A stretch of DNA of 64,000 bases from Spirochaetales bacterium. Its GTDB lineage: Bacteria > Spirochaetota > Spirochaetia > SZUA-6 > DRHE01. Shown in pieces: positions 20,082 through 46,051 of this stretch. The stretch's first letter is position 1; each line of letters opens with the position of its first letter. A model generated the notes under the pieces. The model did no database searches. It worked only from the letters and a program-made list of their open reading frames with translations, and was not told the origin of the DNA. The position numbers and the translations under genes were made by a program. The DNA lies in assembly GCA_030615505.1 (NCBI GenBank), contig JAUWZD010000007.1, forward strand, positions 4,702 to 68,701, given 5' to 3'.

Positions 20082-20797
20082 TGCCCTGTAATTATCCTCC
20101 GTCCCCCTGTTCGCCTGAGGGCCATCCCTATCTCCGCTGCTGTTCCATTCTCAACTAGAAAGCAAGTCTGCCTGGTACCGATCTCCCCGGGACGGTGAGC
20201 GTCCGAAGACCGAATCACAGGTGTATTTCCAGGCAGTGCAGGTAGTCTTTCGGAGCATACCTCCACCCCGTCCAGCTTCAGGTCCTCCGGGATGAATCCG
20301 AGCTGGCTGAGCACGCTGAAGCTAGGACGGTCCACATGAGATGCTATCGCCAGGCCATTGAACTCGTGGATAATCCGCACGACTTCATCCAGACTCAGAT
20401 CCGTGGCCCCGATCAACAGCTTCCGATTGCGGCGGATCACCCTGTCCTGTCCATCCATCACCAGTTGTTCACCGAAGATGCCGGGATCGTTCTCGCCCGG
20501 GAGATTGTCATAGATGACATCCTGAACCGCACTCAGAAGGCGGTCCTCCTGGAAGAGCCCCAGCACATGCACTTCCTCACGGGAGGTTATCTCCATACCT
20601 CCGATCACGGCCAGCCCAACCTTTTCTGCTGCTCGGACCACCGCCTGGACGTTCTCCGCTGAGTTGTGGTCACAGATCGCAATCAGATCCAATCCTTTCT
20701 CTCGAGCTTGCCTGGTCACCGTCAAAGGAGACATCTCCCTCTCTGCGCACGGTGAAAGGCAGGTATGTATATGCATATCAGCATGCAGTGCCCTCAC
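20078..20797 (-). CDS. PHP-domain phosphoesterase
   Basis: N-terminus ADMHIHTCLSPCA, then DLIAICDHN, the PHP metal-binding histidine/aspartate pattern. Confidence 0.7.
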   Translation of the reverse strand: MRALHADMHIHTCLSPCAEREMSPLTVTRQAREKGLDLIAICDHNSAENVQAVVRAAEKVGLAVIGGMEITSREEVHVLGLFQEDRLLSAVQDVIYDNLPGENDPGIFGEQLVMDGQDRVIRRNRKLLIGATDLSLDEVVRIIHEFNGLAIASHVDRPSFSVLSQLGFIPEDLKLDGVEVCSERLPALPGNTPVIRSSDAHRPGEIGTRQTCFLVENGTAAEIGMALRRTGGRRIITGQ

Positions 20798-21165
20798 TTC
20801 CTGATTCCGGACAGGCCCAGATTGTACAGCCGGCCTATCAGCTCGAAGGCCGGAAGGGCGCTGACCAGCAGCGGAATATTCTCTTCCCTGGCCTTCTGGA
20901 GGGTATCTGCTTCGGGCTCACGCCCGTTGACCAGGACTATTCCAGCCAACCCTTTCATGCTCGCTACGGCGACGGTGTTCTGGTGCGTTTGCAGAGTCAC
21001 CCACAGGTCCCCTTCCTCAGCGTTAGCTATCACATCGCTGATCAGATCGCTGGCGTATCCCCCCTGCACCTCGTTCGAGAGTGAACCATTGCCGGCCTTC
21101 ACTTCAAGCTTAAGCCTTTTTGTGATCTCACTCAGATCCATCTTCGTTCCCCACCAGAATCTCAA
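20794..21165 (-). CDS. DRTGG domain protein
   Basis: ASDLISDVIANAEEGDLWVTLQTHQNTVAVASMKGLAGIVLVNG matches the DRTGG domain pattern. Paralogous to 22074..22478. Confidence 0.6.
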   Translation of the reverse strand: MRFWWGTKMDLSEITKRLKLEVKAGNGSLSNEVQGGYASDLISDVIANAEEGDLWVTLQTHQNTVAVASMKGLAGIVLVNGREPEADTLQKAREENIPLLVSALPAFELIGRLYNLGLSGIRK

Positions 21166-22117
21166 CTTTTAGCCTCGTCCCTTTGCCTACAGTTGAGCTA
21201 AGGTTCATTCTGTCAGAACACTTCTGTATATTGTGAAGGCCCATTCCTGCACCAAATCCGAGCTCCCTCACCCACTCCGGGGCTGTGGAGAAGCCCGGCT
21301 TAAGGGCCTGATCGATATCCGGAATCCCGGGGCCATCATCCTCCACCTCGATCTGGATAATTTCAGGCTCGATCTTCGTCTTTATTTTTCCGCCATTGGT
21401 GAAAAATATTAGATTCATCTCCGCCTCGTAGGTGGCAATGGCGGCTCGGCGTGTGATCTGGGGGGATATTCCCAGCCGCAGAAGGGTGGTTTTTAGACCG
21501 CCGGCGCTGTTGCCTGCCCGGCTGAAATCCCCTCCGCTCACCTGGTACTCAAAGATCAGCGCGCTCTTGTCGGCAACTATATCCTCGAAGATATGGCTCG
21601 ACCTGGTGCTGTGTATCTCCGCCTGGCGGTAACCGATATCTAACTTTTTAAGCAGTCCCCCGATAATGTCGCCCTTGGTGATCACCCCGGTCAGCTTTCC
21701 GATCCCCCTGGCGAGTACCGGCAGTCGGCCGAAGCCGAACCGCTCAAGATTGTTGAACGCCTGGATGAGGGGTTCATCCTCAAAAACGCTGATGACCTTT
21801 CTGGTCATTCGATCAACTACGGCACAGTCAGGCCCACCGTCATATAGCCACCTGATGAAATCCTCCAGGCTGATGATACCTACCAATCGTCCTTCCTCGA
21901 CTACTGGTGTACCGGAGATGCGATTATCTCGCAAGACTGCCCGTAGATCGCTCATCTGGGTTGAAGGGATGACTTTGATAACCCCCCTCTTCATCACATC
22001 GCCGACCCGGAGCTCATAAACGAGCTCCTGAATCTTGGTTATTTCTCTTTCTATCAATGGGAGTTTACCCTCCTTATCTAGCCCCGACGGCCAGGCCCTT
22101 TGAGTACAGCCGGCCAC
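21128..22117 (-). CDS. CBS-pair plus GHKL ATPase domain protein
   Basis: Two CBS-like segments (VMKRGVIKVIPSTQMSDL...; VDRMTRKVISVFEDEPL...), then IEVEDDGPGIPD...GFGAGMGLHNIQ (HATPase_c). Confidence 0.7.
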   Translation of the reverse strand: MAGCTQRAWPSGLDKEGKLPLIEREITKIQELVYELRVGDVMKRGVIKVIPSTQMSDLRAVLRDNRISGTPVVEEGRLVGIISLEDFIRWLYDGGPDCAVVDRMTRKVISVFEDEPLIQAFNNLERFGFGRLPVLARGIGKLTGVITKGDIIGGLLKKLDIGYRQAEIHSTRSSHIFEDIVADKSALIFEYQVSGGDFSRAGNSAGGLKTTLLRLGISPQITRRAAIATYEAEMNLIFFTNGGKIKTKIEPEIIQIEVEDDGPGIPDIDQALKPGFSTAPEWVRELGFGAGMGLHNIQKCSDRMNLSSTVGKGTRLKVEILVGNEDGSE

Positions 22118-22478
22118 AAGATTCGTACATCAACAGTTGCGTAACGAACAGCGGCATCCCCTTCTCCTTAGCCAGCGTGATTGTTTCCGGCTGGGGTTTC
22201 TTACCACGGACGAAGCATATAGCGGTTAAATCCAATATTTCGGCCGTGCGTATCACCTGCGAATTGGTCAATCCGGTCAAGAGCAGAGAACCTGGAGTGC
22301 AGCAGGTCAGCATATCGCTTATGAGGTCGCTGGCGTGGCCTGAGCTGACCTCCTGGTCGCCGCAGTCGGTGTTCCAGACCAACTCCGCTTGGAGAACCTG
22401 CTGAACGTCTTGCAGCTTCACTGCACCGTTACCGCCTCGGACCTGCAAACGTCTCGGCAAACGCCGCACTTGATGCAC
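22074..22478 (-). CDS. DRTGG domain protein (start uncertain; ORF overlaps the NuoF-like gene by ~60 nt)
   Basis: HASDLISDMLTCCTPGSLLLTGLTNSQVIRTAEILDLTAICFVRG; paralog of 20794..21165. Confidence 0.55.
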   Translation of the reverse strand: MHQVRRLPRRLQVRGGNGAVKLQDVQQVLQAELVWNTDCGDQEVSSGHASDLISDMLTCCTPGSLLLTGLTNSQVIRTAEILDLTAICFVRGKKPQPETITLAKEKGMPLFVTQLLMYESCGRLYSKGLAVGAR

Positions 22479-24211
22479 TTCTCCTGATCAATGGTCTGCG
22501 GTTTCCCCTTCTCGCCCGAGATCGCCTGCTGCGGGCAATTCTTTACACAGAGCAGGCAGGCATTGCACTTCTCCGCATCGATGGTATACGTTATCAGAGC
22601 CCTGCAGACACCTGCCGGACAGCGCTGCTCATTGATATGCGTCTCGTACTCATCCTTGAAGTAACGCAAGGTGCTCAATACCGGGTTCGAAGCCGTAGCG
22701 CCCAACTGGCAAAGGGAGCCGTCCTTTACCGCCTGGCTCAATTCCTCGAGCAGCTGGATATCCCCCTGATTGCCCTTGCCATCGCAGATATCTGTAACGA
22801 TCCGATACATGGCATCCACTCCCTCGCGGCAGGCGGTGCACTTTCCGCAAGACTCGCTCCGCAAGAACTCGAGGAAGTATCTGGCCACATCGACCATGCA
22901 GTTATCCTCATCCATCACAATCATCCCGCCCGAGCCCATCATCGAGCCGACCTCGGTCAGGCGCTCGTAGTCTATCGGTAGGTCCAGGAGGGACGCCGGG
23001 ATACATCCACCTGAGGGTCCTCCCGTCTGCACAGCCTTGAAGGCCTTGCCGTTCTCCATCCCGCCGCCGATATCGAAGATGATCTCTCGCAGCGTGATAC
23101 CCATTGGGACCTCAACCAGGCCGGTGTTCCTCACCTTGCCAACCAGTGCGAAGACCTTGGTTCCCTTGCTGGTCTCCGTGCCGATCTGTGAGAACCACCC
23201 TGCTCCCCGCTTGATAATCTCGGGGACGATTGCCAGTGTCTCCACATTATTGAGAACCGTCGGCTTCTCCCATAGTCCTTTCTCGGTAGCGTGAACTTGC
23301 TTCGAGAACGGCTCCGGCGGATCTCCCTGAATCGAGGCTCTCAGGGCACTGGACTCACCGCAGACAAACGCCCCAGCGCCCCTGAACACGGATATATCAA
23401 AGTCAAATCCTGTCCCCAGAATGTCATGGCCCAGGAGGCCGTATTCCATGGCCTGCTTGATGGCCAGGTTCAGCCGTTGCAGTGCCAGGGGGTACTCCGT
23501 GCGGATGTAAATGTAGCCCTGGCCGGCGCCTACTGCCTTGCCTGCGATAGCCATACCTTCGAGTACGGAGTGAGGATCACTTTCTATTATGCTTCTATCC
23601 ATAAAAGCGCCGGGATCGCCTTCGTCGGCATTACATATGATATATTTTTCCTTGCTGTGATGACTTGCAGCTGATTCCCATTTCCTCCCGGTGGGGAAGC
23701 CGGCGCCCCCCCGCCCGCGGAGACCGGAATCCTTGACAGTCTGGATGATCTCCTGGCTGGTCATTGAGGTGAGGGCCCTGGCCAGCGCCCGGTAGCCTCC
23801 TCGGGCAATTGCTTCCTCGATCTTCTCAGGGTCGATCATTCCGCGATTGCGCAGGGCGATCAGCCGCTGCTTCTCGAAGAAATCAATCTCACTCATCTTC
23901 GGGACCGGCGCTTTCTCAAGCGAAGGAGTGTACATGAGCCGCTTGACCGGACGCCCTTTCAAGAAGTGCTCCTCGACCAGGTGGGGAATATCCTTCTCGG
24001 AAAGAAGCTGGTAAAAGATATTGTCCGGCTGGACGACCATTACCGGGCCCTGGGCGCAGAATCCGTTGCAGCCGGTCATGACAACGGCGATCTCATCCTG
24101 TAGCTCATGCTTTCCCAACTCCTGTTCAAGGTCGGCTTTAATCCGAAAGGACCCGTTCGAGACACAACCGGTTCCGGCACAGAGCATTAGATGCATCCGG
24201 GACTTTTTCAT
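22418..24211 (-). CDS. NuoF/HydB-like NADH-binding FMN flavoprotein with N-terminal thioredoxin-like [2Fe-2S] and C-terminal 2x[4Fe-4S] (bifurcating-hydrogenase beta-subunit type)
   Basis: GRGGAGFPTGRKWE (FMN/NADH site), ESCGKCTACREG (NuoF 4Fe-4S), N-terminus CAGTGC...CNGFCAQGP, C-terminus CNACLLCVKNCP / CIKCGVCRDVC. Confidence 0.9.
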   Translation of the reverse strand: MKKSRMHLMLCAGTGCVSNGSFRIKADLEQELGKHELQDEIAVVMTGCNGFCAQGPVMVVQPDNIFYQLLSEKDIPHLVEEHFLKGRPVKRLMYTPSLEKAPVPKMSEIDFFEKQRLIALRNRGMIDPEKIEEAIARGGYRALARALTSMTSQEIIQTVKDSGLRGRGGAGFPTGRKWESAASHHSKEKYIICNADEGDPGAFMDRSIIESDPHSVLEGMAIAGKAVGAGQGYIYIRTEYPLALQRLNLAIKQAMEYGLLGHDILGTGFDFDISVFRGAGAFVCGESSALRASIQGDPPEPFSKQVHATEKGLWEKPTVLNNVETLAIVPEIIKRGAGWFSQIGTETSKGTKVFALVGKVRNTGLVEVPMGITLREIIFDIGGGMENGKAFKAVQTGGPSGGCIPASLLDLPIDYERLTEVGSMMGSGGMIVMDEDNCMVDVARYFLEFLRSESCGKCTACREGVDAMYRIVTDICDGKGNQGDIQLLEELSQAVKDGSLCQLGATASNPVLSTLRYFKDEYETHINEQRCPAGVCRALITYTIDAEKCNACLLCVKNCPQQAISGEKGKPQTIDQEKCIKCGVCRDVCRSEAVTVQ

Positions 24212-24597
24212 AGCGCCTGCTCACTGCCAATGGCCAGGGCGTAATCGGCAACGATCTTGCCGCCCATAACGTGCTCTGTAAATATCTTATTCACCTTCTC
24301 CTCTGTGAGATCTATATATTTAACCGGGGCTTGCCCTTCAAGCTCGACGGTCATCATTGGCTCCTTGCTGCACAAGCCTGCGCAACCGGAGCTAGTGATG
24401 ATAATATCGCCAGTATCGAGCTCGCTAACGCATTCGATCACGGCAGACATTATTTTACGCGCCCCGGCAGATATCCCGCAGGTCCCCATGTGGATAGTAA
24501 TCTTGGCCCGCCCCGATCCTTCGCGCAGAGACATCACCTTTTTCATACGCTCGGTAATCTTGTCAAGATCCTCTGGTCGCAGCTTAGCCATTTTCAC
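24208..24597 (-). CDS. Thioredoxin-like [2Fe-2S] ferredoxin (HndB/NuoE-like small subunit)
   Basis: ITIHMGTCGISAGARK...SSGCAGLCSKEP. 129 aa, typical small subunit of NADH-dependent hydrogenase/FDH modules. Confidence 0.7.
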   Translation of the reverse strand: MKMAKLRPEDLDKITERMKKVMSLREGSGRAKITIHMGTCGISAGARKIMSAVIECVSELDTGDIIITSSGCAGLCSKEPMMTVELEGQAPVKYIDLTEEKVNKIFTEHVMGGKIVADYALAIGSEQAL

Positions 24598-24605
24598 TTC
24601 CTTCG

Positions 24606-25505
24606 CTAGGCAGGATATTTGTCCAGCGCCTTAACTATCTTTTGCGGGGTAATTTTGCCGTAAACATCTTCATCGATGGTCACTACTGGTGCCAGGCCGC
24701 AGCAGCCCAGACAGCGCACAGCTTCCAGCGTAAAGCGTCTATCCCCGGTTGTTCTGCCGGCTTGAACATCAAGCTCCCGCTCAAGGCTTTCCAGAATCCG
24801 CGAGCCTCCCTTAACATGGCAGGCGGTCCCCAAACACACCCTGATGATATGCTCGCCCCGGGGCTCGAGGCTGAACACGTTGTAGAATGTAGCGATACGC
24901 AAGACCCGTGATAGAGGTATTCCAACGGCCTCGGATACATGCCGCATCGCGCCAGGCGGGAGCCACTTGTACCTGGCGTTAATGTCCTGAAGGATAGGGA
25001 GAACCGATCCCCTTTCTCCCTCATGTTCGGCGAGGATTCGGTTCACCTCGCTGAGCTCGCCGGGAGTGAGCTCCAGCGGCTCCGGTTCCGCGGGTTCAAC
25101 ATAGGCCCTGTTCCTCACCAAACAGTTCGCCATGCACTCTCCGCAGCCTGTGCATTGATCAGCTTTTACCGAGCGAGCCTTTTTCCTGACGCGGACTTTG
25201 AAGGCCCCAGGTTCTCCCTCTATGCTTTCAACTTCTGAGTAGGTAAGCTTCTCAATGTTTATGTGGCTCCCGCACTCTACCATTCTTGGTGCAAGTGTGC
25301 ACATTGCACAGTCATTGGTTGGAAAGGTCTTGTCGAGCTGGGACATGACCCCGCCGATAGCGGGACTTCTTTCCACCAAATAGACCTTAAACCCTGCATT
25401 TGCCAGGTCTAAAGATGCCTGCATACCTCCGATGCCTGCCCCCACAACCAGGACTGAACCCACCTTGTTATTACTACCCTGACTACTCAAAGCCATAGCC
25501 TCCAC
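24606..25505 (-). CDS. Fusion protein: HdrA N-terminal FAD-binding segment joined to a NuoE-like [2Fe-2S] domain; first gene of the operon
   Basis: Residues 1..~130 (VLVVGAGIGGMQASLDLANAGFKVYLVERSPAIGGVMSQLDKTFPTNDCAMC...CTGCGECMANC) run parallel to the first ~130 aa of both HdrL genes. The remainder (LPILQDINARYKWLP...RVCLGTACHVKG...CLGCCGLAPVV) is a NuoE/24-kDa-subunit fold. Confidence 0.8.
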   Translation of the reverse strand: MEAMALSSQGSNNKVGSVLVVGAGIGGMQASLDLANAGFKVYLVERSPAIGGVMSQLDKTFPTNDCAMCTLAPRMVECGSHINIEKLTYSEVESIEGEPGAFKVRVRKKARSVKADQCTGCGECMANCLVRNRAYVEPAEPEPLELTPGELSEVNRILAEHEGERGSVLPILQDINARYKWLPPGAMRHVSEAVGIPLSRVLRIATFYNVFSLEPRGEHIIRVCLGTACHVKGGSRILESLERELDVQAGRTTGDRRFTLEAVRCLGCCGLAPVVTIDEDVYGKITPQKIVKALDKYPA

Positions 25506-26509: not shown

Positions 26510-27568
26510 AAAATGATTATCCGGTTCCCTAAGGTTCTTCCTTCAAAATAAAGAGATAGGATGCAACCATCCTGTAAGCTTACCTGAAGCATATAAATCC
26601 TCATAAGTTGGTCCACATTTTTGACTTGCCAATCCCAAGATTGTCTGGAAAGCTGCCATGGGAGTTCTTCGCCTATTATGTCGAAAGACAAACTCATTCA
26701 AGTATGCTTGCAAGTGCTTTCCACTTACTCCGTGATGTGTGCCTTCGAGCCAAACCTTCAAATTGCCTATGGTGCGGTGAATGTGCTCAAGTTCCTTAAT
26801 ACTAACAACTTCATGTATATAGCCTGCCTTATTCAAACCGTCATAACCAGACCAATCATCTGTATAAACTAACGAACCAGGTTCTACATTGCCTTCAACA
26901 AATCCAATAAGAGTTTCACCTGAAACATCAGGGATAACATTTAACCTTAGACGCCCAACACGTTTCTTCTTTGTTGGTTCATCGATAACTTCTATCGCAC
27001 CAGCAACAATTGTTTTTCCTGACACTCCACGACCTCGTTTTCCCGCTTTTGAGGCCCCAATATATGTTTCGTCGACTTCTATAACACTGTGGATTCTATC
27101 ACGATCTGGACGTACCATCGCTGCACGGAGCTTGTGCAGAATTTGATAAGCTGTTTCATATCGATTTATGCTAAGCTGTTTCTGGAACTGAAGAGCTGAA
27201 AAACCTGGTGTATGAGTGGCAACAAGATAAGCACCCCAGAACCATATCACTAATGAAGTTCTTGTACCATGCATGACAGTTCCTGCCGTAATGCTAGTTT
27301 GATTCCCACATTCCGAACATTCAAGTCTACGATAGGTTTCTATATTGTAAGGATCAGCATTAATCTTACATTTAGGGCAAATAAACCCATTGGGCCAACG
27401 GCATTTATAAAGGTAGTCTATGCAAGTTTTTTCGTCAGGAAACCAATGTTGAAATTCAAGGAGTGTTTTCGGAAATGGAATTTTACCTCGCTCATGTCCA
27501 TTCTTGATTTTTTGCACAAATATTATGCTACTTCAGATCACTTCCTTAGTAAACCGGATAATCATTTT
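26510..27568. mobile_element. IS1595-family insertion sequence (ISXO2-like transposase) with ~25-bp imperfect terminal inverted repeats
   Basis: IRs aaaatgattatccggttccctaagg (26510..26534) and ccttagtaaaccggataatcatttt (27544..27568), 2 mismatches. A single transposase ORF lies inside. Confidence 0.75.
26543..27517 (-). CDS. IS1595-family (ISXO2-like) transposase with N-terminal zinc-ribbon
   Basis: CIDYLYKCRWPNGFICPKCK...CSECGNQTSITAGTVMHG (zinc ribbon), then DETYIG...TDDWSGY...YLNEFVFRHNRR, the ISXO2-like DDE domain. Confidence 0.85.
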   Translation of the reverse strand: MQKIKNGHERGKIPFPKTLLEFQHWFPDEKTCIDYLYKCRWPNGFICPKCKINADPYNIETYRRLECSECGNQTSITAGTVMHGTRTSLVIWFWGAYLVATHTPGFSALQFQKQLSINRYETAYQILHKLRAAMVRPDRDRIHSVIEVDETYIGASKAGKRGRGVSGKTIVAGAIEVIDEPTKKKRVGRLRLNVIPDVSGETLIGFVEGNVEPGSLVYTDDWSGYDGLNKAGYIHEVVSIKELEHIHRTIGNLKVWLEGTHHGVSGKHLQAYLNEFVFRHNRRRTPMAAFQTILGLASQKCGPTYEDLYASGKLTGWLHPISLF

Positions 27569-27689
27569 TTTTATTTTATAGCACTTCTTGCCAATATATG
27601 TTTTAAAGAGAGGGTTGGTATAATTCTAAACGCAACTCTTTTTACCATCCTTCTGATTTTTACAGTAAATCCCCGCAAAATTGTCAATT

Positions 27690-28283
27690 TCTCCCAGAAA
27701 TTGCGTATGAAGAATCTCCTCCCATCAGGAGAGTTTATCAGTGAAGTTTACACCCCTTATCAACATATCCTTTTAGGCGCACTTCCCTCTCAGATGGTTG
27801 TCCTTTCCAACGGAGAGATTATCAATAGCATTCCTGAGGTTGTAGATGCCGATAAGGATAGCGCTCTCTTCGTATCTGGAGCTAATTTACCGTAAAAAGT
27901 ACTTATTTTGGGAATTGGCTCAGAAAATTTAATCCGTTCTCTTTTAAAATTCCCCATAAAAAATATAACTTATTGTTCGGAGGATCAGATTTACTATGAT
28001 GAAGTTCAACGAAACCTCCCCTTCGGAATTAAAAAAGAGTTTCCAAGACAGCCGGTTAGAAATTGTTTTCCGTTCTCCTCGGTTATTTTTAAAAGAAAAT
28101 GCATCTCCTGGAAACAGTAGCCAGAAAAAGTTTGACCTGGTCATAGTTAATACCCCTGATCCTTCCAATCTAATAATAAATAATCTTTTTACTCAGGAGT
28201 TTTATTCCCTCCTAAAGGAGAATTTGAAAGACAGGGGAGTTCTGGGCACCCGCATAACATCAGCAGAGAATTATATTGGTTAA
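27690..28283 (+). pseudogene. Spermidine-synthase-like (aminopropyltransferase fold) gene with at least two frameshifts; may originally have continued into the TM segment at 28563..28979
   Basis: Fragments in three frames: EVYTPYQHILLGA...LSNGEIINS...DADKDSALF (27269..27895 ORF tail); MGIGSENLIRSLLKFP...SEDQIYYDEVQ (27908..28120); FDLVIVNTPDPSNLIINNLFTQEFYSLLKENLKDRGVL (27996..28283). AT-rich. Confidence 0.5.
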
Positions 28284-28562
28284 GAAATCAGAAATTATGG
28301 TTCCTGCCTTTATTATACTTTAAAAGAGGTATTCCCTAAAATTGTCATCGTGCCGGGGAAAATAAACTGGTTTTTCGCCGGAGCTAACGATTCTTCTTTA
28401 ACAGAGGATGCATCCGTTTTGGAATCGCGGTTTAAAAAATTGGCTCCTTTTGTTTAAGAGAGGTAAATTCCTGAACCGTGATGCACATCCTTTAACTTTC
28501 TTCCTTAATCTTCTTGTCATGGCACGCTATTCCAGCTCATCGGTTTAATCAATTCCCTCTTT

Positions 28563-28979: not shown

Positions 28980-30547
28980 TCCCTATTCATCTTATTGTAG
29001 GAGAAAGAAAGCTTCAGAGATTATCCCTTCCCTACGTTCGAACTTCTTTCATTCTGCTGGCGATAGCTATATCTTTTTTGCTTGACTCCTATCTTTTGGA
29101 GAGAAAGAGAGATGTCCAGGTGGAAAAGCTCTCTCTGATTGTAAAAATGACAGGAGAGAAGTTCAACAGACAAAAAACTCCTTTTCCTGCCTACCTATCT
29201 CAAAGCAAAGAAAAAAGGATATATGTCCTGGATTCCGATGATTATGCTCCCCGGATAAGGGGATTTGCTGGCCCAATAAACCTTCTTATCGGAGTAGATG
29301 CAAAGGGAGAAATCCAAGAAATAAGAGCATCCCCACATAGGGAGACTCCTTCTTATGTCTTAGGTATGGATAATTTTTTGTCTAAATTTAAAAGTCTTCG
29401 GTTAGGGCAAAAATTTTTTCTCACCACAAAGCGAGACTCACATCAGCAAATCCCTCAAACGGGTGCTTTCGGCGGAAATATAGATGCCATGAGTGGAGCA
29501 ACAATTACCTCTCAAGCATTGATAGACATTGTAAATGAAACGGGCAGCAAGCTTAGAGAAATAGAAGCGTTTGGATTATCGAAGGAGAGCTTAGAGCAAA
29601 AGGATGTGGCCTCTTTAGCTATTGATGTCCCTTCTTTAGTCCTTATCTTCTTCACTGTATCAGCAATTGTACTTTATCTGTTCTTCTCTGATAAAGTAAT
29701 GCTGAGGAGGGTATATCTTTTCCTTTCAGTGATTTTTTTAGGATTTTTTTATAACTCTACTTTTTCTGTTTTTCATCTAAGCAAGCTTTTCACTTTCAAT
29801 TTACCGTCCTTTACATTGCTATCGATTATTCTTATATATCTTATTCCTTTAACCTTAGCTATATTGTTTGGGCCAGTATGGTGCGGCTGGATATGTCCTT
29901 TTGGAGCGCTTCAAGAGCTGTTAGGGAGTTCCAGATTATCTTTTAAGGTATCTAAAAAACTCGATAAAAAGGCGAGGTACTTTAAGTTTGCATTCCTGGC
30001 ATTCTTTATCGTAGTTATATCTCTCGAGAGAGAAGCATCTTTTTTCAAGCAGGAACCTCTCTCTATGTTTTTCCTTAATCCTACTAGGATTTCTTTTGAT
30101 AAACTTTTGTGCATTGTCATAATAATATTATCAATTTTTTTCTTAAGATTCTGGTGCAGGTATTTCTGCATCTGCAGGGCATTACTTTCTTTCTTTAATA
30201 AGATTTCTCCTCTTAAAAGGCTTTTCTCTAAAAACTACAAAAATTACCCCTTTGGCATTGAGGGTCCCCATGATTTAGATTGTATTCACTGTAATCTGTG
30301 TCTGTATGCCATAAGAAAGGATATGAGGAAAGATAGCTACTTTAAGATCGCCTTCTTTTTTACCATTCTGCTAATGATAATAATATTTTTTTCTAATATA
30401 AAAATACAGAAGCCAACTTCATATCGTACAGAAGCAGGAGAGAGGATTCTTTTTGAAAGAATAGATAAAGAGAGAATAGAAAGGCTCATCGAAGAGGATA
30501 AGCTTTCCAATAAGGAAGCCATGTTCTATGAGGTTATAGAGGAGTAA
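28943..30547 (+). CDS. NosR/NirI-like membrane protein: FMN-binding domain plus polytopic TM region with CxxxCP and ferredoxin-like Cys motifs
   Basis: GGNIDAMSGATITSQALIDIV (FMN_bind motif), PVWCGWICPFGALQE (NapH/NosR-type CX3CP), CIHCNLCLYAI, about 8 hydrophobic helices. AT-rich. Confidence 0.55.
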   Translation: MLYFISAFFMEVIPIHLIVGERKLQRLSLPYVRTSFILLAIAISFLLDSYLLERKRDVQVEKLSLIVKMTGEKFNRQKTPFPAYLSQSKEKRIYVLDSDDYAPRIRGFAGPINLLIGVDAKGEIQEIRASPHRETPSYVLGMDNFLSKFKSLRLGQKFFLTTKRDSHQQIPQTGAFGGNIDAMSGATITSQALIDIVNETGSKLREIEAFGLSKESLEQKDVASLAIDVPSLVLIFFTVSAIVLYLFFSDKVMLRRVYLFLSVIFLGFFYNSTFSVFHLSKLFTFNLPSFTLLSIILIYLIPLTLAILFGPVWCGWICPFGALQELLGSSRLSFKVSKKLDKKARYFKFAFLAFFIVVISLEREASFFKQEPLSMFFLNPTRISFDKLLCIVIIILSIFFLRFWCRYFCICRALLSFFNKISPLKRLFSKNYKNYPFGIEGPHDLDCIHCNLCLYAIRKDMRKDSYFKIAFFFTILLMIIIFFSNIKIQKPTSYRTEAGERILFERIDKERIERLIEEDKLSNKEAMFYEVIEE

Positions 30548-30666
30548 ATTACGTTTATTTTCCAAACGGCCGCGCTCATCCTGCACCTTAAGACCAGCCT
30601 TGAAAGGTCAAGATTGTGAAATACGGGACTCTCCCCCACTAAGATATTCGTACCAGGAAAAAAATA

Positions 30667-30984
30667 TCAAAAAGGTTCTAAAAATAACAACATCTTGCCT
30701 CCGCAGACATCTCCATTCCGAGTGCCTAGATCGTCTGTAAGATCTACTTCTATTAGTTCGGTGGTTTTAGTAGTGATAATACAGCGAAGTGCGGCAGTCC
30801 GGACATTGTCCTCTCCACATCCCCCTCCTACGGATCCATACAAAGTACCATCGACACAGACAATCATCTTAGCTCCTTGCTCCCGTGGAGTGGAACCGAT
30901 GGTTTCAACGATGGTAGCAAGACAAACAGCTACTCCGCGATTTCGAAGCTCTGCAAGTTTGCGAAAGATTTCTTGATCGGTCAT
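30667..30984 (-). CDS. XdhC/CoxI N-terminal-domain-only protein (105 aa)
   Basis: VCLATIVETIGSTPREQGAKMIVCVDGTLYGSVGGGCGEDNV...DVCGGKMLLFLEPF. 4-bp overlap with the upstream xdhC. Confidence 0.7.
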   Translation of the reverse strand: MTDQEIFRKLAELRNRGVAVCLATIVETIGSTPREQGAKMIVCVDGTLYGSVGGGCGEDNVRTAALRCIITTKTTELIEVDLTDDLGTRNGDVCGGKMLLFLEPF

Positions 30985-31748
30985 TTGCTACCTCCAACCG
31001 CTGTTCTCAAAGCTAGCACTCCTGCCGAACCCTTCCTGCGTATGCAAACAAGCTCAGCCACGATGGAGATGGCAATCTCAGCAGGCGATTCGGCCCCGAT
31101 TGGAAGCCCAATCGGAGTAAAGACTTCTTTCAGACGATCTTGAGGTATACCCTCTTGAGCTAATATGTCTAAAACAAAGCGAATCCTTCGGCGGCTTCCG
31201 ATAAGTCCAACGTAAGCAGTTTCATTGCGCAATATCTCAACAAGACACTCTATGTCATGCTCATGGCCACGCGTTATCACGACAACATAGGTGGATGGGC
31301 TGAGGGGCATATCACGCAAGGCTTCTGTGAAGTCCTCCGCAATCACCTTACAATCAGGAAAGAGAGACGTGTGAGCAAACTCAGATCGATCATCGAGCAC
31401 AGTAACACTAAATCCAACTTGGCGGGCAAAGCGCGTTAGGTGTAAGGCTATATGACCTGCGCCGCATACCAGAAGCTTCGCATCAGCTGAAAGAACATCG
31501 ATAAAGACTCTTACTCCGTGAGCAATTTCAACAATGCGTTTCTTCTTCTCTTTGAGAGCCTCCAGAGCCGGATCACACAAAGTCATTCTCAACTGCTTCG
31601 ACTCAATTTCTCCCTCCATCGATCCATCCCTCAATATAATCACTTTCCGACCAGATGGGACATCCGAGCGGTGAGAGGCTACGATAGTGGCAAGACAAAA
31701 AGTTTCCCCTTTTTCCAGAAGTTCATTAACTCTATCAATAAGCTCCAT
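30981..31748 (-). CDS. xdhC: XdhC family protein (molybdenum-cofactor insertion/sulfuration accessory; XdhC_CoxI plus Rossmann XdhC_C)
   Basis: FCLATIVASHRSDVPSGRKVIIL...KLLVCGAGHIALHLTRFARQVGFSVTVLDDR...ITRGHEHD. Confidence 0.8.
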   Translation of the reverse strand: MELIDRVNELLEKGETFCLATIVASHRSDVPSGRKVIILRDGSMEGEIESKQLRMTLCDPALEALKEKKKRIVEIAHGVRVFIDVLSADAKLLVCGAGHIALHLTRFARQVGFSVTVLDDRSEFAHTSLFPDCKVIAEDFTEALRDMPLSPSTYVVVITRGHEHDIECLVEILRNETAYVGLIGSRRRIRFVLDILAQEGIPQDRLKEVFTPIGLPIGAESPAEIAISIVAELVCIRRKGSAGVLALRTAVGGSK

Positions 31749-31866
31749 AAGTACTTCAATAATAAATCAATAATTGGTGAGGAGAAAGTAATCTGCAAGG
31801 CATTAAAGGCGGTTTTACAAGGCGAAAAACCCACCTATCCGCTGAATCAGGTTTGATAAGGTATGG

Positions 31867-32916
31867 TCAGCCCTTAAAGCTTATCCCTCTGCCCTCTTTG
31901 ACCTCGCCAATGATCCAGCAGGGATGTCCCCGCCGCTCGAATAATTCGAACAGCCGATCCAGCTTATTAGGCCTTACGGAAGAGAGTAGCCCCCCCGATG
32001 TTTCCGGGGTAAAAAGCATCAACTGCTCTTTTTTGCCTATGGAGGCTTCAAAACGAACCTTCCCGACGTAACAGTTCCTGTTACGGAACGTACCGCCTGG
32101 AAACAGATTCTTTTCTGCATACTCCCGGGCACCCTCCAAAAAGGGAATCTTTTGCATAAATAAAGAGAGCTGCACATTACTATTATCAGCCATCTCCAGG
32201 CCGTGGCCCATCAGGGAAAACCCGCTAACATCCGTACAGGCCTGCACACCGACTTCCTGAAAGATGCGGGCGGCCTGGCGGTTCAGTTTTTTCATACTGG
32301 CAACTGAAGCGGAGATCTCCGGCTCACTGGCGATTTCCATTTTTAAAGCCGTAGTGGTAATACCAGTGCCCAGAGGCTTGGTGAGAACCATCAGATCCCC
32401 CGGACGGGCATTCGCCTTCTTCAGGATCCGATGCGGATTTGCCAGACCTGTAACGGCCAATCCGTATTTAAGCTCCTTATCTATTAGCGTGTGTCCCCCG
32501 GCCAGGACGCCTCCGGCTTCAGCCACCTTATCAGCACCACCGCGCAGGATATTTTCCATGGTCTCTGAGGACAGATCTTCGGGAAAGCAGCAGACATTCA
32601 GGGCCAGGGTAACCTCACCGCCCATGGCATAGACATCGCTTAGAGAATTGGCAGCCGCGATTGCGCCGAAGTCGTATGGATCGTTTACAATGGGCGGGAA
32701 AAAGTCTATGGTCTGGATCAGTGCACACTCTTCACTGATCTTATACACCGCCGCATCATCGCTGACCGCCAGTCCTACTAAAAGATTGGGGTATTGATCC
32801 GGATTAAAATAACTCTTTAAAAGGCGCAGGACCTGCGCCAGGGTCTCAGGACCCATCTTGGCCGCTCACCCAGCCGCAGAAGATAAAGCTGTAAGCGGAA
32901 TAGTTCGCTCAGCCAA
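31867..32916 (-). CDS. selD: Selenophosphate synthetase SelD, selenoprotein form: TTG start at 32916, in-frame UGA (Sec) at 32868..32866
   Basis: The ORF track starts at ATG 32856, but in-frame upstream translation gives (L/M)AERTIPLTALSSAAG-U-AAKMGPETLAQVLRLL. This matches the SelD N-terminal motif (E. coli ...[25 protein letters not shown]) with TGA at the catalytic Cys/Sec position. GGAGG RBS 6 nt upstream of the TTG. Downstream DAAVY...DFFPPIVNDPYDFGAIAAANSLSDVYAMGG is the AIR-synthase-like fold. Confidence 0.8.
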
Positions 32917-33196
32917 CTGCTTACCTCCAATCCCTTTATTAATCCATGGTGATTCTTTCACAAACTTGTTCCAATTTCAAGCAGGTGCGTTCCCAAGGTA
33001 AATCAGATAGTTGTTTTTGGTTTGATTCGTTTTCGACAGGTAGCCTATTACTATGCCCAGAATTAGGGCAGCTTCAAGAATTTCCCTCAGCATAATTATG
33101 TAACTGGACAGCACAATTTTTCTCCTGTAGTCTGATCAGGTTATAGGTAGCATCCCGCGCATGAGTCCTCCATATGGCTCCGCGGCTCTTCTCAGC

Positions 33197-33532
33197 TTAC
33201 CTATCACGAGGATCATTCAGTTTGCAACAGTCAAGCTTTTTGCCTCCAAACTGCTTCCTGTTATTCTCGGCCATTCGGCCAAGAAAGCGCTCAAGAGGAC
33301 TCTTTTTCTTCTCAACAGCAGCAGTAATACAGCAGCCTGAATCGATAATCTCTTCTTTGATGCAATCGATAGACAGAATCCGCCGGCAGTATTCGATCCT
33401 GATGCCGCTTTCCTGGAGGGCGACGTTATTCACACCCTCCATTTTCATCAACCTTTCATAGAAAGCGGAAGCCGCCTCCTGTGATGGACGATCTTCTAAA
33501 GGAATCACAGATACTGATAAGTACTCTTCCAT
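33197..33532 (-). CDS. Hypothetical Cys-rich small protein (GCC and DCC motifs), next to copZ
   Basis: 111-aa ORF with SGCCITAA and LDCCKLNDP; no recognisable family. Confidence 0.35.
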   Translation of the reverse strand: MEEYLSVSVIPLEDRPSQEAASAFYERLMKMEGVNNVALQESGIRIEYCRRILSIDCIKEEIIDSGCCITAAVEKKKSPLERFLGRMAENNRKQFGGKKLDCCKLNDPRDR

Positions 33533-33603
33533 AAATATCTCCTCTTTTCGGGTAGGCGAAGAGGAAGTAGAGGTGTGAGCTCCCTCTGCGCAGTGAATCA
33601 GAT

Positions 33604-33813
33604 TCAGGAGACTCGATAGCCCTGAGCCTCTATGGTTTCTTTGATCTGGGGTAACCCGACCTGGCTCTCATCGTAGCGAACGGCAACCGATTTTCCTTCC
33701 AGGTCTACCTCGACGTTCGTAACTCCCTGTAAGGCATCCACTGCCTTTTCCACCGTCATCTTGCAGTGGTTGCAGGTCATGCCTTCCACTGTAAGCTTGT
33801 TTTCTATAGCCAT
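33604..33813 (-). CDS. copZ: Heavy-metal-associated (HMA) domain copper chaperone CopZ-like
   Basis: LTVEGMTCNHCKMTVEKAV, the GMTCxxC motif in a 69-aa protein. Confidence 0.85.
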   Translation of the reverse strand: MAIENKLTVEGMTCNHCKMTVEKAVDALQGVTNVEVDLEGKSVAVRYDESQVGLPQIKETIEAQGYRVS

Positions 33814-37086: not shown

Positions 37087-37290
37087 TAAAAAGGGACTGC
37101 CCAGAGCAAAGGGATTATCTTTTCTGCCGCTTAAGGCATCCAAGGGACCGCGTATGATATCCAGGATCAAGATATTATAACATAAATAACTGACAATCAT
37201 TCCAACCACGACAGCCACAAGGCAGAATATTATCCTCATCCTCAACTCACCGAGGTGCTCAAGTAATGATTTTTTTTCGTCTTTCAAAAC
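37087..37290. repeat. Direct repeat copy B (~205 bp): duplicated tatC 5' end encoding an 82-aa truncated TatC N-terminus (ORF 37039..37287, TTG start), abutting the selB stop
   Basis: About 94% identical to 26221..26425. Encodes MKDEKKSLLEHLGELRMRIIFCLVAVVVGMIVSYLCYNILILDIIRGPLDALSGRKDNPFALGSPFL versus TatC MIDEEKSLLEHLGELRMRIIFCLVAVVIGMIVSYLCYDILILDIIRGPLDALSGKKDNPFALGSPFL. Confidence 0.85.
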
Positions 37291-39242
37291 AAGTCTCCTG
37301 CTTTGAGTGCTGCAATTCCTTTCTCCGTTATCAGGCGAAGATCTCCTGATCGTTGGGTAACACCCTCACTATCATATATAGCTAGTAATAACAGGCATAT
37401 TTTCCTGTTACCTTTAACAAGGTTACGAAACTCTGCCACTGTCATACCCTCTTTCCGGCAGGCAAGAGCCTTCAGCAACATCTTTCTGCATCGATCTACT
37501 AAAGAGGCATGGAGGTAACTATCATCTATAAAATAGACCTCCTTCTTTTCAACAAGATAGCGCAGGATATTGTTCAGCCCCTTTTCATCAATATCCTGGC
37601 TTTTCGCGGCAAGAATAAGTTCGGACATAAGGGGGGCCTTCATTTTGCAACTCTTCAGAAAATTTGCTACAAAACTTATCTGGCGATTCAATTCCTGCTC
37701 AATGTCTACTGAGTGATTATTTAGTGCCCAGGTATGTTCAACCTGTTTCAACTTCCCCTCCGCTTCCAGTTTATTAAGTAAAAGATGTAGAAAAACTTCT
37801 GCCGGGCAATCACGATCTATCCTCAATATGCCCATAAGTTCTTCGGTTGTACGTCCTCTCTTAACAAGCGGGTTTCTTCTGTGAAAGGAAGCAATATTTT
37901 TCAACAGCTGTTCCTCTAATCTATCGCATTCTCTCTTTACAATTAGATAGATATTGTCGCCGTAAGTAGAGCAGAATAGATCTTCCGGCAACGAGTTGGA
38001 AACTACTGCGTGCACCTGGTTGGGTGAGACATTCAGTAGATCAGCGATCTCCCTGTGTGTAACCACGCTTAAGCGCTTTCTTACTTCCAAAGCAACAAGT
38101 TCCTGGAGTTTTCCTTCAGCAATCCTGGTCATGCTTTCAATCAATTTTCCAGAACGCCGGCGGTGAAGCAGAGGGAATGTATCAATTACCACACCTCCCC
38201 CAAGAGTTATATCACTCGATGTATTCCGGATTACGAACCTATCACCCCATTGGACATTGAGGGGGTCTTCCAGATGTATCTGAACAAGGGCAGTGTTTCC
38301 CCCGGTTAACCTATCACAATCAATCAAGTGGACTCTTGCCTGTTGTTCATATGTACCAAGATGAAAAATCACCAGGTTCCATAATTTAGTGAAACTGCGA
38401 TTATGATGAAAGAGACGCAGTCTGGCATCCAGCATTTTAGTATGACGAAGAATACGGTCTGAGATGATCATACCTCTTTTAAAATCCTGGCGGGTAAGAC
38501 CTACAAGGTTTATTGCTGCCCTGTCACCAGCAACTACCTCTTCATCTTCTTTTCCGAAGCATTCAATCCGCCTCACTCGCAGCTTCTTTTCTCCAGGTAA
38601 TAGGTAAGCCGTATCACCCACACGCAGGGTACCGCCTATCACTGAGCCGGTGACAACCGTTCCAAAGCCCCTCACACTGAAGATCCGGTCAATAAACATC
38701 CTGAAAATCTCACCCACTGGTCTATCAGTAATTCGTGATGCTACCTGGTTAATACATTCCCTTAACTGATCAAGACCATCACCATTGATTGCAGAAACTT
38801 TTACAATCGGGCAATTCTCCAGAAAGGTTCCGGAAACAAGTCCTTTTATCTCATCCTCGGCCAAGTCGACAATCTCAGGTTCAACCAGATCAATTTTCGT
38901 TATTGCCACAAGTCCACTTCGTACGCCCAGTACGTCCATAATCTGAAGGTGCTCATGTGTTTGGGGCATCACACCACTATCTGCCGCAACAACCATCAGG
39001 GCAAAATCCAAACCACATGCACCTCCAACCATTGTATGGACAAAATCGCGATGACCTGGAACGTCTATAATGCCGATTATGTCACCAGAAGAAAGAGCTA
39101 AATACGCAAAACCCAGATTTATTGTTATCCCGCGCTTCTTCTCCTCCTGGTGAGTGTCACAGTCAATTCCTGTCAACGACTTTATTAACGCCGTTTTCCC
39201 ATGGTCAATATGGCCTGCGGTACCCATAATAAGGTGTTTCAA
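37284..39242 (-). CDS. selB: Selenocysteine-specific elongation factor SelB
   Basis: MGTAGHIDHGKTALIKSLTGIDCD...ITINLGF...DVPGH (EF-Tu-like G domain), then winged-helix C-terminal domains; 652 aa. Confidence 0.9.
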   Translation of the reverse strand: MKHLIMGTAGHIDHGKTALIKSLTGIDCDTHQEEKKRGITINLGFAYLALSSGDIIGIIDVPGHRDFVHTMVGGACGLDFALMVVAADSGVMPQTHEHLQIMDVLGVRSGLVAITKIDLVEPEIVDLAEDEIKGLVSGTFLENCPIVKVSAINGDGLDQLRECINQVASRITDRPVGEIFRMFIDRIFSVRGFGTVVTGSVIGGTLRVGDTAYLLPGEKKLRVRRIECFGKEDEEVVAGDRAAINLVGLTRQDFKRGMIISDRILRHTKMLDARLRLFHHNRSFTKLWNLVIFHLGTYEQQARVHLIDCDRLTGGNTALVQIHLEDPLNVQWGDRFVIRNTSSDITLGGGVVIDTFPLLHRRRSGKLIESMTRIAEGKLQELVALEVRKRLSVVTHREIADLLNVSPNQVHAVVSNSLPEDLFCSTYGDNIYLIVKRECDRLEEQLLKNIASFHRRNPLVKRGRTTEELMGILRIDRDCPAEVFLHLLLNKLEAEGKLKQVEHTWALNNHSVDIEQELNRQISFVANFLKSCKMKAPLMSELILAAKSQDIDEKGLNNILRYLVEKKEVYFIDDSYLHASLVDRCRKMLLKALACRKEGMTVAEFRNLVKGNRKICLLLLAIYDSEGVTQRSGDLRLITEKGIAALKAGDLF

Positions 39243-39291
39243 TTTTTCACCTCAACACTAATGGATAATACTCTTAAAAAATAATGAATTC

Positions 39292-40716
39292 TTAGCCCAG
39301 AGATTTAATCGATTCCGAGATTGAATGAGCTATATATTCAATATCTTCCTCAAATACAGTCAATACATCAAAAACAATCTTACCTTCGCGCAACACCCCA
39401 ACAATGGGACGTTCAAGGCTAAGGAGTCTCTTAAAAATTTGCTCGGCAAAGCTCAACTCATGCTCACCTTCTCTATTCTGCGGCAAAACTTCTACCGCGG
39501 CACTCTTAAGTCTAACAGCAGGTAATGTTCCGCCACCGCATTGGCCCTCGCTTGCATTCAGCCGGGCAGAGATTTCAAGGCTTGATAGTTCTTCAAGAAG
39601 TCTTGAAGCAATGGATTTCAGTTCCCCCTGACTCCTATCCAAAATGGCAAAAGTCGGGCAGGAAGAGGAGAGTTTTTTATCATCGAGATATTGCCTGCAC
39701 ACACTTGAAAGAGCTGTGAGTGTTAATTTTCCAACCCGTACAGCCCTCATAATTGGAGAACGGCTGAGACGCGAGATCAATAAAGCTTTGCCTGCAGCAA
39801 TTCCTGCCTGCGGACCGCCTAAGAGTTTATCGCAACTAAATGTCACAATGTCAGCGCCGGATGCTATCGCACTGCGGACATCCGGTTCATTCTGTAGAAG
39901 TATTCCCTTTAGCTTACTGAGAAGTCCTGAACCAATATCATACACCATTGGCAAATTATGCGTATGTGCCAGATGCGATAAATCTTTTACCGAGACTTCT
40001 TCAGTGAAGCCGGTTATTGTGAAGTTGGATCTATGGGCTTTGAAGAGTAATGCTGTTCGTGGAGTAATCGCTTCCTCGTAGTCAGAAAGACGAGTCTTGT
40101 TCGTTGTTCCAACCTCGACCATATGGACACCACTGGCTTCAATGATCTCTGGAATACGAAATGAGCCGCCAATTTCTATCAGTTCCCCTCTTGAAATAAT
40201 TACTTCACGATCGCGGGCCAGGGTATTGAGGACAAGGACTATAGCTGCGGCATTGTTGTTAACAACCACAGCATCTTCTGCCGAGGTTAGGAATTTCAGT
40301 ATCTCAACAACATGCTTGTTCCTGCTGCTGCGACAGGCATACTTAAGGTCATACTCTAAATTAGAATAGCCTTTAGCAACCTGTGATATATCATTTATGA
40401 CTTCCTGCCCCAGAGGTGCTCGACCAAGATTCGTGTGAAGCACCACTCCGGTTGCATTAATCACCGGCTTAAGTGACTGTCCTGAGATGCAGCTCACCAG
40501 GTCCTCAATATCTGAAATAATGAGCTCCATTGTGCAGGTGTTTTTACCATCCAGGATACTATCTCTGAGGCGCTTTATCACTTTGCGGGTGGCATAGGTT
40601 ATAAGCTCACGGCTGTTTTTATTAATCAATCCCCTTATAATGGGATTGTTTAACACCAGGTTAACGCTGGGTAAACTTCTTAAGTTTTTATTCTCAGGCT
40701 TAATGTTACTGGTCAT
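39292..40716 (-). CDS. selA: L-seryl-tRNA(Sec) selenium transferase SelA
   Basis: VINATGVVLHTNLGRAPL signature; PLP-fold region ...IVTFSCDKLLGGPQAGI. Confidence 0.9.
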   Translation of the reverse strand: MTSNIKPENKNLRSLPSVNLVLNNPIIRGLINKNSRELITYATRKVIKRLRDSILDGKNTCTMELIISDIEDLVSCISGQSLKPVINATGVVLHTNLGRAPLGQEVINDISQVAKGYSNLEYDLKYACRSSRNKHVVEILKFLTSAEDAVVVNNNAAAIVLVLNTLARDREVIISRGELIEIGGSFRIPEIIEASGVHMVEVGTTNKTRLSDYEEAITPRTALLFKAHRSNFTITGFTEEVSVKDLSHLAHTHNLPMVYDIGSGLLSKLKGILLQNEPDVRSAIASGADIVTFSCDKLLGGPQAGIAAGKALLISRLSRSPIMRAVRVGKLTLTALSSVCRQYLDDKKLSSSCPTFAILDRSQGELKSIASRLLEELSSLEISARLNASEGQCGGGTLPAVRLKSAAVEVLPQNREGEHELSFAEQIFKRLLSLERPIVGVLREGKIVFDVLTVFEEDIEYIAHSISESIKSLG

Positions 40717-40740
40717 GTGTACAACTGGTTTCTGATAGTA

Positions 40741-40834
40741 ACAGAGAGGGCAGGAATCGAACCTGCCGCGGAGGGTTTTATCCGCCCGCTACTGGTTTTG
40801 AAGACCAGCCGGAACACCAGTTCCATCCTCTCTA
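40741..40834 (-). tRNA. selC: tRNA-Sec (selC), anticodon UCA, ~94 nt, long variable arm; ends approximate
   Basis: Minus strand reads tagagagg-at-ggaactggtgttcc-g-gctggtCTTCAAAaccagt-agcgggcggataaaaccctccgcgg-caggttcgattcctgc-cctctctg. Anticodon loop cTTCAAAa (TCA) with a 6-bp anticodon stem, 4-nt D-loop, long extra arm and TTCGATT T-loop. 25 bp upstream of the selA start. Confidence 0.75.
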
Positions 40835-45892: not shown

Positions 45893-46051
45893 TTATGTGA
45901 CCCCTTTATGCTATTACCTTCGAAATCTTGCGCCTTCAACACAAGAAATAATCAAGTCCAGCGCCCGAATATATTGTGTCGGACTTTTACTTATAAAACT
46001 TTGGTTGCGGCTGTATGCTGCGCTGGGCTAATAAAACAAAAATGAACTTTT

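Follow-up and report, generated by a model that had tools for sequence, protein, structure and literature searches.

Why should a gene for selenide, water dikinase (selD) stand directly beside genes of the XdhC/CoxI family, whose products act as chaperones of the molybdenum cofactor (Moco), at a locus with no hydroxylase for them to serve? The question is raised by a 64-kb stretch of a Spirochaetales bacterium genome (contig JAUWZD010000007.1), here called the window, the part of this genome that the analysis covered. In it, two minus-strand open reading frames (ORFs) of 255 and 105 amino acids (aa) follow a selD with an in-frame selenocysteine (Sec) codon (Table 1). The original prediction, made from the sequence alone, read the three genes as a portable module for the maturation of selenium- and molybdenum-containing cofactors, and its coordinates, the ATGA overlap of the two ORFs, their 118-bp distance to selD and the Sec residue in selD are all confirmed by the sequence. 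The answer that our data favor is a different one: the pair is a split and permuted XdhC, probably a Moco chaperone for xanthine oxidase (XO)-family hydroxylases encoded elsewhere, and its adjacency to selD is a product of deletion. The earlier observation was real but partly misdescribed, and its interpretation is supported in part.

Both proteins are members of the XdhC/CoxI family, as had been proposed. They pass the gathering scores of the Pfam families concerned (PF02625 and PF13478; 24.3 bits for XdhC_CoxI and 29.7 bits for XdhC_C), the 105-aa protein with XdhC_CoxI at 75.8 bits and the 255-aa protein with XdhC_CoxI at 36.1 bits and XdhC_C at 142.3 bits. Their description as a full XdhC accompanied by an extra gene for the N-terminal domain does not agree with the alignments. 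Full-length XdhC proteins (PDB chains 2WE7 and 3ON5 and the curated model NF045664) contain three modules: domain 1, with the motifs GGC.E and CGG/CNG; domain 2, a degenerate repeat of domain 1; and a Rossmann domain. The 105-aa protein covers domain 1 (residues 15-105 of 2WE7, residues 36-121 of 3ON5 and positions 2-98 of NF045664), and the 255-aa protein covers domain 2 and the Rossmann domain (residues 128-364 of 2WE7; best NF045664 stretch 172-345), with E values of 1e-11 to 1e-20 for the alignments to the PDB chains. Two cysteines of the small subunit, C56 in GGGCGE and C94 in VCGG, match cysteines of 2WE7 and 3ON5. The N-terminal domain of the 255-aa protein is without either cysteine motif, and its Rossmann part has CGAGHIA. 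In the XdhC of Rhodobacter capsulatus, the highly conserved cysteine of the family is Cys82 (PMC2997495).

With domain 1 and its cysteines on the 105-aa protein, and domain 2 and the Rossmann domain on the 255-aa protein, the two are complementary halves of one XdhC. The alignments thereby establish the two ORFs as a predicted single XdhC chaperone in two chains and in circularly permuted order: the window has domain 2-Rossmann on one ORF and domain 1 on the next, not the single-chain order of domain 1 followed by the Rossmann domain. This split, permuted architecture is covered by no curated model. Of the models that had been suggested as a check, neither ORF matched TIGR03309 (YqeB, cutoff 220 bits) at E ≤ 0.01 or TIGR03172 (YqeC, cutoff 73 bits); both matched the XdhC models TIGR02964 and NF045664, with scores below the cutoffs (discussed below). 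The best-matching curated model was NF045664, the XdhC family aldehyde oxidoreductase maturation factor. A description of a split or permuted XdhC was not found in the literature searched, coverage of which was incomplete, leaving novelty unproved.

The pairing of the two genes is conserved. At E ≤ 1e-10 the large subunit has 1917 homologues, most of them in Desulfobacterales, Syntrophales, Syntrophobacterales and Elusimicrobiota, and roughly 380 GTDB species carry the pair. Of the best 120 homologues, all have lengths of 253-272 aa apart from two (277 and 282 aa), and once the window protein itself is set aside, the remaining 119 share 61-74% identity with it. Related XdhC-anchored loci were compared in 80 species-representative genomes (mostly Desulfobacterales, Syntrophales, Syntrophobacterales, Deferrisomatales and Elusimicrobiota) and five metagenome contigs. 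At all 85 of these loci a homologue of the 105-aa gene lies directly 3′ of the 255-aa gene, mostly overlapping or abutting it, and the small subunits keep both cysteine motifs except in the outlier L082 (GGGYSE). Low tblastn scores had led us to suspect Sec codons in the 105-aa orthologues, but the 85 translations have cysteine codons at both Cys positions and no in-frame stop. In the window, the ATG of the small-subunit gene (30984-30982) overlaps the TGA of the large-subunit gene (30983-30981) as ATGA, supporting the translational coupling that had been proposed. Both window ORFs are intact and retain every family-invariant residue, and the ratio of nonsynonymous to synonymous substitution rates (dN/dS) of the small subunit against a sister strain (locus L086, described below) is 0.13.

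Fused relatives connect the two chains. A search with the small subunit, covering 1.84 billion representative proteins, recovered domain 1 as stand-alone proteins of ~100-160 aa, at the N terminus of canonical fused XdhC proteins (P0157, P0162 and P0170) and at the C terminus of fused proteins of 333-389 aa (P0159, P0161, P0177, P0184, P0193, P0211 and P0288). Two of the permuted fusions, P0184 and P0161, were aligned to the two window proteins joined end to end, and both run colinear through the 255/256 junction (37% identity, E 2e-59, and 41% identity, E 5e-64, respectively), and Pfam places XdhC_C before XdhC_CoxI in both. The domain assignment is fixed by these fused permuted homologues together with the hidden Markov model alignments to 2WE7 and 3ON5, and the fusions support the prediction that the two window products act as a single functional unit. 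Permuted (domain 2, Rossmann, domain 1), canonical and split forms of XdhC coexist in nature.

Linkage to selD, by comparison, is not conserved. No selD homologue was present in the flanks of the 85 XdhC-anchored loci (median flank ~8 kb per side, with at least 1.2 kb upstream in 69 of the 80 genome loci), nor was an XdhC pair present near selD in 11 selD-anchored metagenome loci, a weak reciprocal test given that these were contigs at 44-65% identity and several were short. The more distant selD-anchored loci had selA-selB and then selD. The gene-neighborhood comparison that had been put forward as a check on the module thus returned no conserved selD-xdhC linkage.

The sole locus that shares the neighborhood of the window is L086 (ENA ERZ23498458 scaffold_36974), a scaffold of 4.4 kb with 96-97% DNA identity. 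In the aligned region (1500-2770 of L086 versus 31749-33150 of the window), L086 has lost the 5′ part of selD, Sec codon included, by two deletions, and its XdhC pair is intact despite the truncated selD. Its selD-xdhC spacer is 727 bp long; the additional 609 bp contain pseudogene fragments, including the C-terminal part of a D-2-hydroxyacid dehydrogenase gene, frameshifted and on the opposite strand (2-Hacid_dh_C, 30.8 bits, cutoff 25.1). A 49-aa ORF in the same spacer starts like a response-regulator receiver when read by eye (it has no Pfam match). The 118-bp spacer of the window consists of three blocks of the L086 spacer, brought together by two internal deletions of 143 and ~437 bp, and its plus strand still encodes remnants of the dehydrogenase C terminus (…EEKVICKALK / AVLQGEKPTYPLNQV*, the asterisk being the stop).

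Since the spacer is the remnant of a longer, pseudogene-bearing region, the adjacency of selD and xdhC arose by deletion. Judged from these alignments, the comparison establishes the arrangement as a recent, lineage-specific deletion product in a decaying intergenic region and not an evolved operon. With the linkage unconserved, the spacer a deletion relic and no sign of joint movement, the proposal of a portable selenium/molybdenum maturation module is not upheld. The selD-xdhC region is a decay hotspot; the L086 strain either has a further selD elsewhere, or its scaffold is the result of a heterogeneous population.

The selD of the window starts with TTG (32916), 7 nt after GGAGG, and has its in-frame TGA at codon 17 (32868-32866), within the motif LTALSSAAG-U-AAKMG at the catalytic Cys/Sec position. 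Two stable hairpins within 50 nt 3′ of this codon (z = -2.45) fit a bacterial selenocysteine insertion sequence element, and a sigma-70-like site lies 5′ of the gene at 32980-32952. The spacer has no promoter-like or terminator-like site and no Rfam match, and it folds as RNA no better than shuffled sequence (z = +0.65). Because it has neither type of site, read-through from selD is possible; transcription from the promoter-like site into the pair is plausible and may help to express it, but would be incidental. Of the probable co-transcription with selD that had been proposed, this possibility of read-through stands, and an evolved operon does not. We rejected a Moco riboswitch or other structured RNA 5′ of the pair, the sole Rfam match in the window being tRNA-Sec and a permissive scan of 30400-33300 being empty. 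Directly upstream of selD (33197-33813, minus strand; kept in L086 at 917-1533) are genes for a 69-aa HMA copper-chaperone-like protein and a 111-aa protein with a C-terminal LDCC metal-binding motif (NF040898, 48.3 bits).

Selenium use elsewhere in the window bears directly on why selD is there. Its presence is already explained by the selenocysteine machinery, since tRNA-Sec, selA, selB and a Sec-containing formate dehydrogenase are all encoded in the window (Table 1). The full Sec decoding set is consecutive on the minus strand at 37284-40834. The TGA of the formate dehydrogenase (50268-50266) lies in the motif ARI-U-HSATV, and the locus (45014-50844, minus strand) also encodes an FdnH-like 4Fe-4S protein, an NrfD-like membrane subunit and FdhE. 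A ParA/Mrp-like ATPase gene, fdhD and a MobA-like gene lie within 54234-56720 on the same strand; because FdhD is encoded in the window, a chaperone for cofactor sulfuration is already dedicated to the formate dehydrogenase.

Table 1. Positions in the window of the XdhC pair, selD and the genes related to selenium and molybdenum
Feature	Position	Strand	Evidence or remark
XdhC small subunit, 105 aa	30667-30984	minus	Pfam XdhC_CoxI (domain 1)
XdhC large subunit, 255 aa	30981-31748	minus	Pfam XdhC_C and XdhC_CoxI
selD-xdhC spacer, 118 bp	31749-31866	no strand	Alignment of the window with L086
selD (selenide, water dikinase), Sec at codon 17	31867-32916	minus	TIGR00476, 347 bits
selB	37284-39242	minus	In a row with selA
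selA	39292-40716	minus	In a row with tRNA-Sec
tRNA-Sec	40741-40834	minus	Rfam, 70 bits
Sec-containing Mo/W formate dehydrogenase	47737-50844	minus	Alpha subunit split by TGA
FdhD	55382-56161	minus	226.9 bits
MobA-like gene	56148-56720	minus	

No XO-family hydroxylase was found in the 64 kb by Pfam scans of the large ORFs or by tblastn with an XO-family large subunit. The original statement that no hydroxylase is nearby is therefore correct for the XO family, but its account of the molybdoenzyme context was incomplete, the Sec formate dehydrogenase lying within the window. Searches of the window by tblastn with positive-control proteins from related loci found no YqeB or YqeC, and no TIGR01976 desulfurase was found in the 64 kb. 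Of the trait set of selenium-dependent hydroxylases, the window holds SelD, with YqeB, YqeC and an XO-family hydroxylase absent.

What, then, do the pairs accompany elsewhere? Neighbors were counted within 10 kb among the 80 genome loci. XO-family molybdenum-binding subunits occurred at 12 of the 80 loci, TIGR01976 cysteine-desulfurase-like proteins at 10, VWA proteins related to MadC at nine and YqeC (TIGR03172) at eight; YqeB (TIGR03309), AAA proteins related to MadB and NifU-like scaffolds each occurred at six, and MobA-like nucleoside triphosphate transferases (cytidylyltransferases) and dimethyl sulfoxide (DMSO)-reductase-family enzymes at five each. As positive controls for the YqeB and YqeC models, neighbors of the pair in L061 and L060 scored 369.8 bits (TIGR03309) and 182.7 bits (TIGR03172), respectively. 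In ~10% of loci, YqeB or YqeC together with XO-family genes adjoin the pair. A Pfam census of 107 immediate neighbors revealed no dominant partner, YqeC being the only frequent one with a functional link. These recurring XO-family, desulfurase, YqeB, YqeC and MobA-like neighbors fit a role in Moco maturation for the XO family.

At some loci (L060, L061, L063, L068, L046, L056 and L079), such genes are grouped into a single cluster with the pair. The order in L060 (a Desulfonema limicola metagenome-assembled genome, MAG; 3453-9574) is MadB-like AAA ATPase, MadC-like VWA protein, NifU-like protein, canonical XdhC, split pair, YqeC and MobA-like protein; the canonical XdhC is short (263 aa), and two kinds of XdhC thus stand side by side. 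YqeB and XO-family subunits lie upstream of the cluster in L061 and L063. Clusters of the L060 type are compact candidate maturation loci for selenium-dependent molybdenum hydroxylases. In a neighbor-joining tree, the pairs embedded in these clusters group in a clade of their own, with 51-57% identity to the window pair; the latter falls in a larger clade whose members are mostly without molybdenum context. Two members of that broad clade have YqeB upstream of the pair: L010, immediately next to it, and L052, together with an XO-family gene.

These data bear on the link to YqeB-type selenium-dependent hydroxylases that had been suggested for the window. Such genes lie beside orthologues at some loci, as the YqeB, YqeC and XO-family neighbors counted above show, and the association does not extend to the window, whose two proteins match neither YqeB nor YqeC and where both families are absent. 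For this window the selenium idea is unsupported by synteny, family membership or junction history; it stays alive, weakly, only at the level of the family, for the cluster-embedded orthologues.

We favor the reading in which the window pair is a split, permuted XdhC that most probably serves XO-family hydroxylases encoded outside the window. The R. capsulatus XdhC binds Mo-molybdopterin, holds it during sulfuration by a desulfurase and inserts it into XO-family enzymes (PMC2997495), and we drew the proposed mechanism from work on this protein and on Escherichia coli PaoD (PMC2997495). The two subunits would assemble into an XdhC fold, and the complex would then bind and protect Mo-molybdopterin or the cytosine dinucleotide form of it. 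A cysteine desulfurase would act on the bound cofactor, swapping an oxo ligand for a terminal sulfido ligand, with the conserved cysteines of the small subunit possibly serving as a persulfide relay or a cofactor ligand. The complex would finally insert the matured cofactor into its client hydroxylase or hydroxylases.

Several observations weigh against this reading. Both proteins score below the cutoffs of the XdhC models, at 48.5 bits (105 aa) and 87.7 bits (255 aa) for the XdhC equivalog TIGR02964 (cutoff 161.6) and at 80.4 and 204.8 bits for NF045664 (cutoff 350), the latter falling short even if summed. The large subunit has a dN/dS of 0.49 against L086, a value that is no more than moderately low and was calculated from few substitutions. 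In the window, the pair has no client hydroxylase, cysteine desulfurase or cytidylyltransferase beside it, ~50 of the 80 genome loci are without any molybdenum-related neighbor, and the immediate neighbors are heterogeneous (EamA 11, NAD synthase 5, YqeC 5, DUF3106 5 and thymidylate synthase 4 of 107). In the closest clade (L006, L089 and L090), the gene 205 bp upstream on the same strand encodes a 702-aa enzyme of the DMSO reductase family. The subfamily is known from sequence alone.

Among the alternatives, the one that fares best is that selD and the pair form a functional selenium/molybdenum unit after all, in which SelD would make selenophosphate, the pair would hold Moco for its labile selenium ligand, and the selenium-dependent hydroxylase would be encoded elsewhere. 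The adjacency of the genes, across a spacer without terminator-like structure, is what such a unit predicts, but that spacer is a deletion relic with an opposite-strand pseudogene, selD linkage is found at none of the 85 and none of the 11 loci, and L086 keeps its pair next to a truncated selD. The host does use selenium, and fusions of XdhC-like domains to proteins of the YqeB family are frequent (Haft & Self 2008, PMC2276186); the same study, however, found selD and YqeB close together only where selD is an orphan in its genome, and selD here is explained by the selenocysteine trait. Orthologous pairs in clusters with YqeB, YqeC, MobA-like proteins and XO-family subunits, and those beside YqeB in L010 and L052, also speak for the proposal. 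Against this, the window lacks YqeB and YqeC, and the clusters with YqeC, MadB/MadC-like and NifU-like proteins belong to the separate clade described above. On balance, we consider a unit of this kind unlikely. An extension of the idea at the family level would have the split pair hold the cofactor at the core of the maturation of selenium-dependent hydroxylases across Desulfobacterota and neighboring phyla, presenting Moco to YqeB/YqeC for a selenophosphate-derived selenium ligand, with the selD-xdhC read-through transcript of the window as a new coupling of donor and carrier; to this we give an equally low probability.

Could the pair instead hold or sulfurate the molybdenum or tungsten cofactor of a bis-pterin enzyme of the DMSO reductase family, such as the Sec formate dehydrogenase 16 kb away? 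The window brings together, within 26 kb, the pair, this enzyme, FdhE, FdhD, a MobA-like gene and the selenocysteine machinery; yet the dedicated FdhD and the MobA-like gene themselves weaken the case for a further formate dehydrogenase chaperone. The upstream 702-aa enzyme in L089, L090 and L006 also speaks for such a role, and this arrangement may hint at XdhC pairs also serving bis-pterin enzymes. DMSO-reductase-family matches nevertheless occur at fewer loci than XO-family neighbors (5 versus 12 of 80), and the five cases include closely related contigs and may represent a single evolutionary event. Characterized XdhC proteins, moreover, handle mono-pterin cofactors, in competition with MobA (PMC2997495), and we regard this alternative as decidedly improbable, more so than the preceding one. 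The enzyme in L089 (5688-10400), L090 and L006 is cytoplasmic, with a ParA/Mrp-like ATPase downstream, in a setting of CoA-transferase, thiolase and DUF35-type (zf-ChsH2/OB) genes.

The least credible alternative sees the pair as decaying or without function, a leftover in a mosaic region rich in transposases, or else gives it a Rossmann function unrelated to Moco. It can draw on the surrounding pseudogene fragments and transposases, on the large-subunit dN/dS and on the many related loci without molybdenum context, but is very hard to reconcile with two intact ORFs that keep all family-invariant residues, with the low small-subunit dN/dS and with a highly conserved family whose best homologues are 61-74% identical.

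The mosaic character of the region, which the original prediction had also noted, is evident from mobile-element debris at 26543-28560, 56994-59330 and 61929-62762, including a 778-aa protein with HTH_32 and a DDE transposase. A 324-aa ORF at 26543-27517 resembles an ISXO2-like transposase (by reading of the translation only), and beside it are short, broken ORFs of low GC content, one of which looks by eye like a spermidine-synthase fragment. On the minus strand at 6672-25505, three giant HdrA-like flavoproteins (1009, 1009 and 1076 aa), all containing Fe-S domains, are encoded with HdrB/C-like CCG proteins, 4Fe-4S proteins and NuoE/NuoF-like subunits, an arrangement suggestive of a large locus for electron bifurcation. 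This region has a GC content of 0.52-0.57, versus 0.37-0.38 at 26-30 kb.

For annotation, the consequences of these results are practical. The selenium/molybdenum module is not a conserved entity, and the locus should not be reported as one. What the locus does represent is a large, conserved XdhC subfamily in two permuted chains, with the cysteine domain on a 105-aa ORF. Both ORFs are annotated generically as XdhC/CoxI family protein, and the small one is easily mistaken for a redundant extra; both genes are needed when these chaperones are expressed or when Moco maturation capacity is inferred from genomes. Clusters that combine the pair with YqeB, YqeC, MobA-like and XO-family genes are well-delimited, compact candidate loci in which installation of the labile selenium ligand of selenium-dependent hydroxylases could be studied.

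Known systems place the window pair within this picture. YqeB, YqeC, XdhC-like domains and SelD have been linked to selenium-dependent molybdenum hydroxylases (Haft & Self 2008, PMC2276186; Zhang et al. 2008). The YqeB/YqeC system likewise comprises SelD, XO-family enzymes, a protein related to MobA and XdhC-like domains, which in E. coli and Haloarcula are fused to YqeB, and orthologues of the window pair sit inside YqeB/YqeC clusters in some Desulfobacterales and related MAGs. The window differs from that system in that its proteins match neither TIGR model and its selD is not an orphan but belongs to a selenocysteine-using genome. With R. capsulatus XdhC and E. coli PaoD (XdhC/CoxI family, COG1975), the pair shares XdhC_CoxI and XdhC_C, either of the two near-invariant cysteines of its domain 1 may correspond to Cys82, and its related loci likewise associate with cysteine desulfurases, MobA-like cytidylyltransferases and XO-family subunits; unlike them, it consists of two permuted chains, scores below the TIGR02964 cutoff and has no client enzyme in its operon. 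All three modules are shared with 2WE7/2WE8 (Mycobacterium smegmatis, 386 aa), 3ON5 (Bacillus halodurans BH1974, 362 aa) and NF045664 (346 positions), but these are single chains of domain 1, domain 2 and Rossmann domain, whereas the window has separate, overlapping genes for domain 2-Rossmann and then domain 1. The metagenomic permuted fusions (P0159, P0161, P0177, P0184, P0193, P0211 and P0288) have the same module order as the window, but in one chain, and are distant relatives known from sequence alone. Set against these systems, the window pair appears to be an ordinary Moco chaperone in function and an unusual one in its split, permuted architecture.

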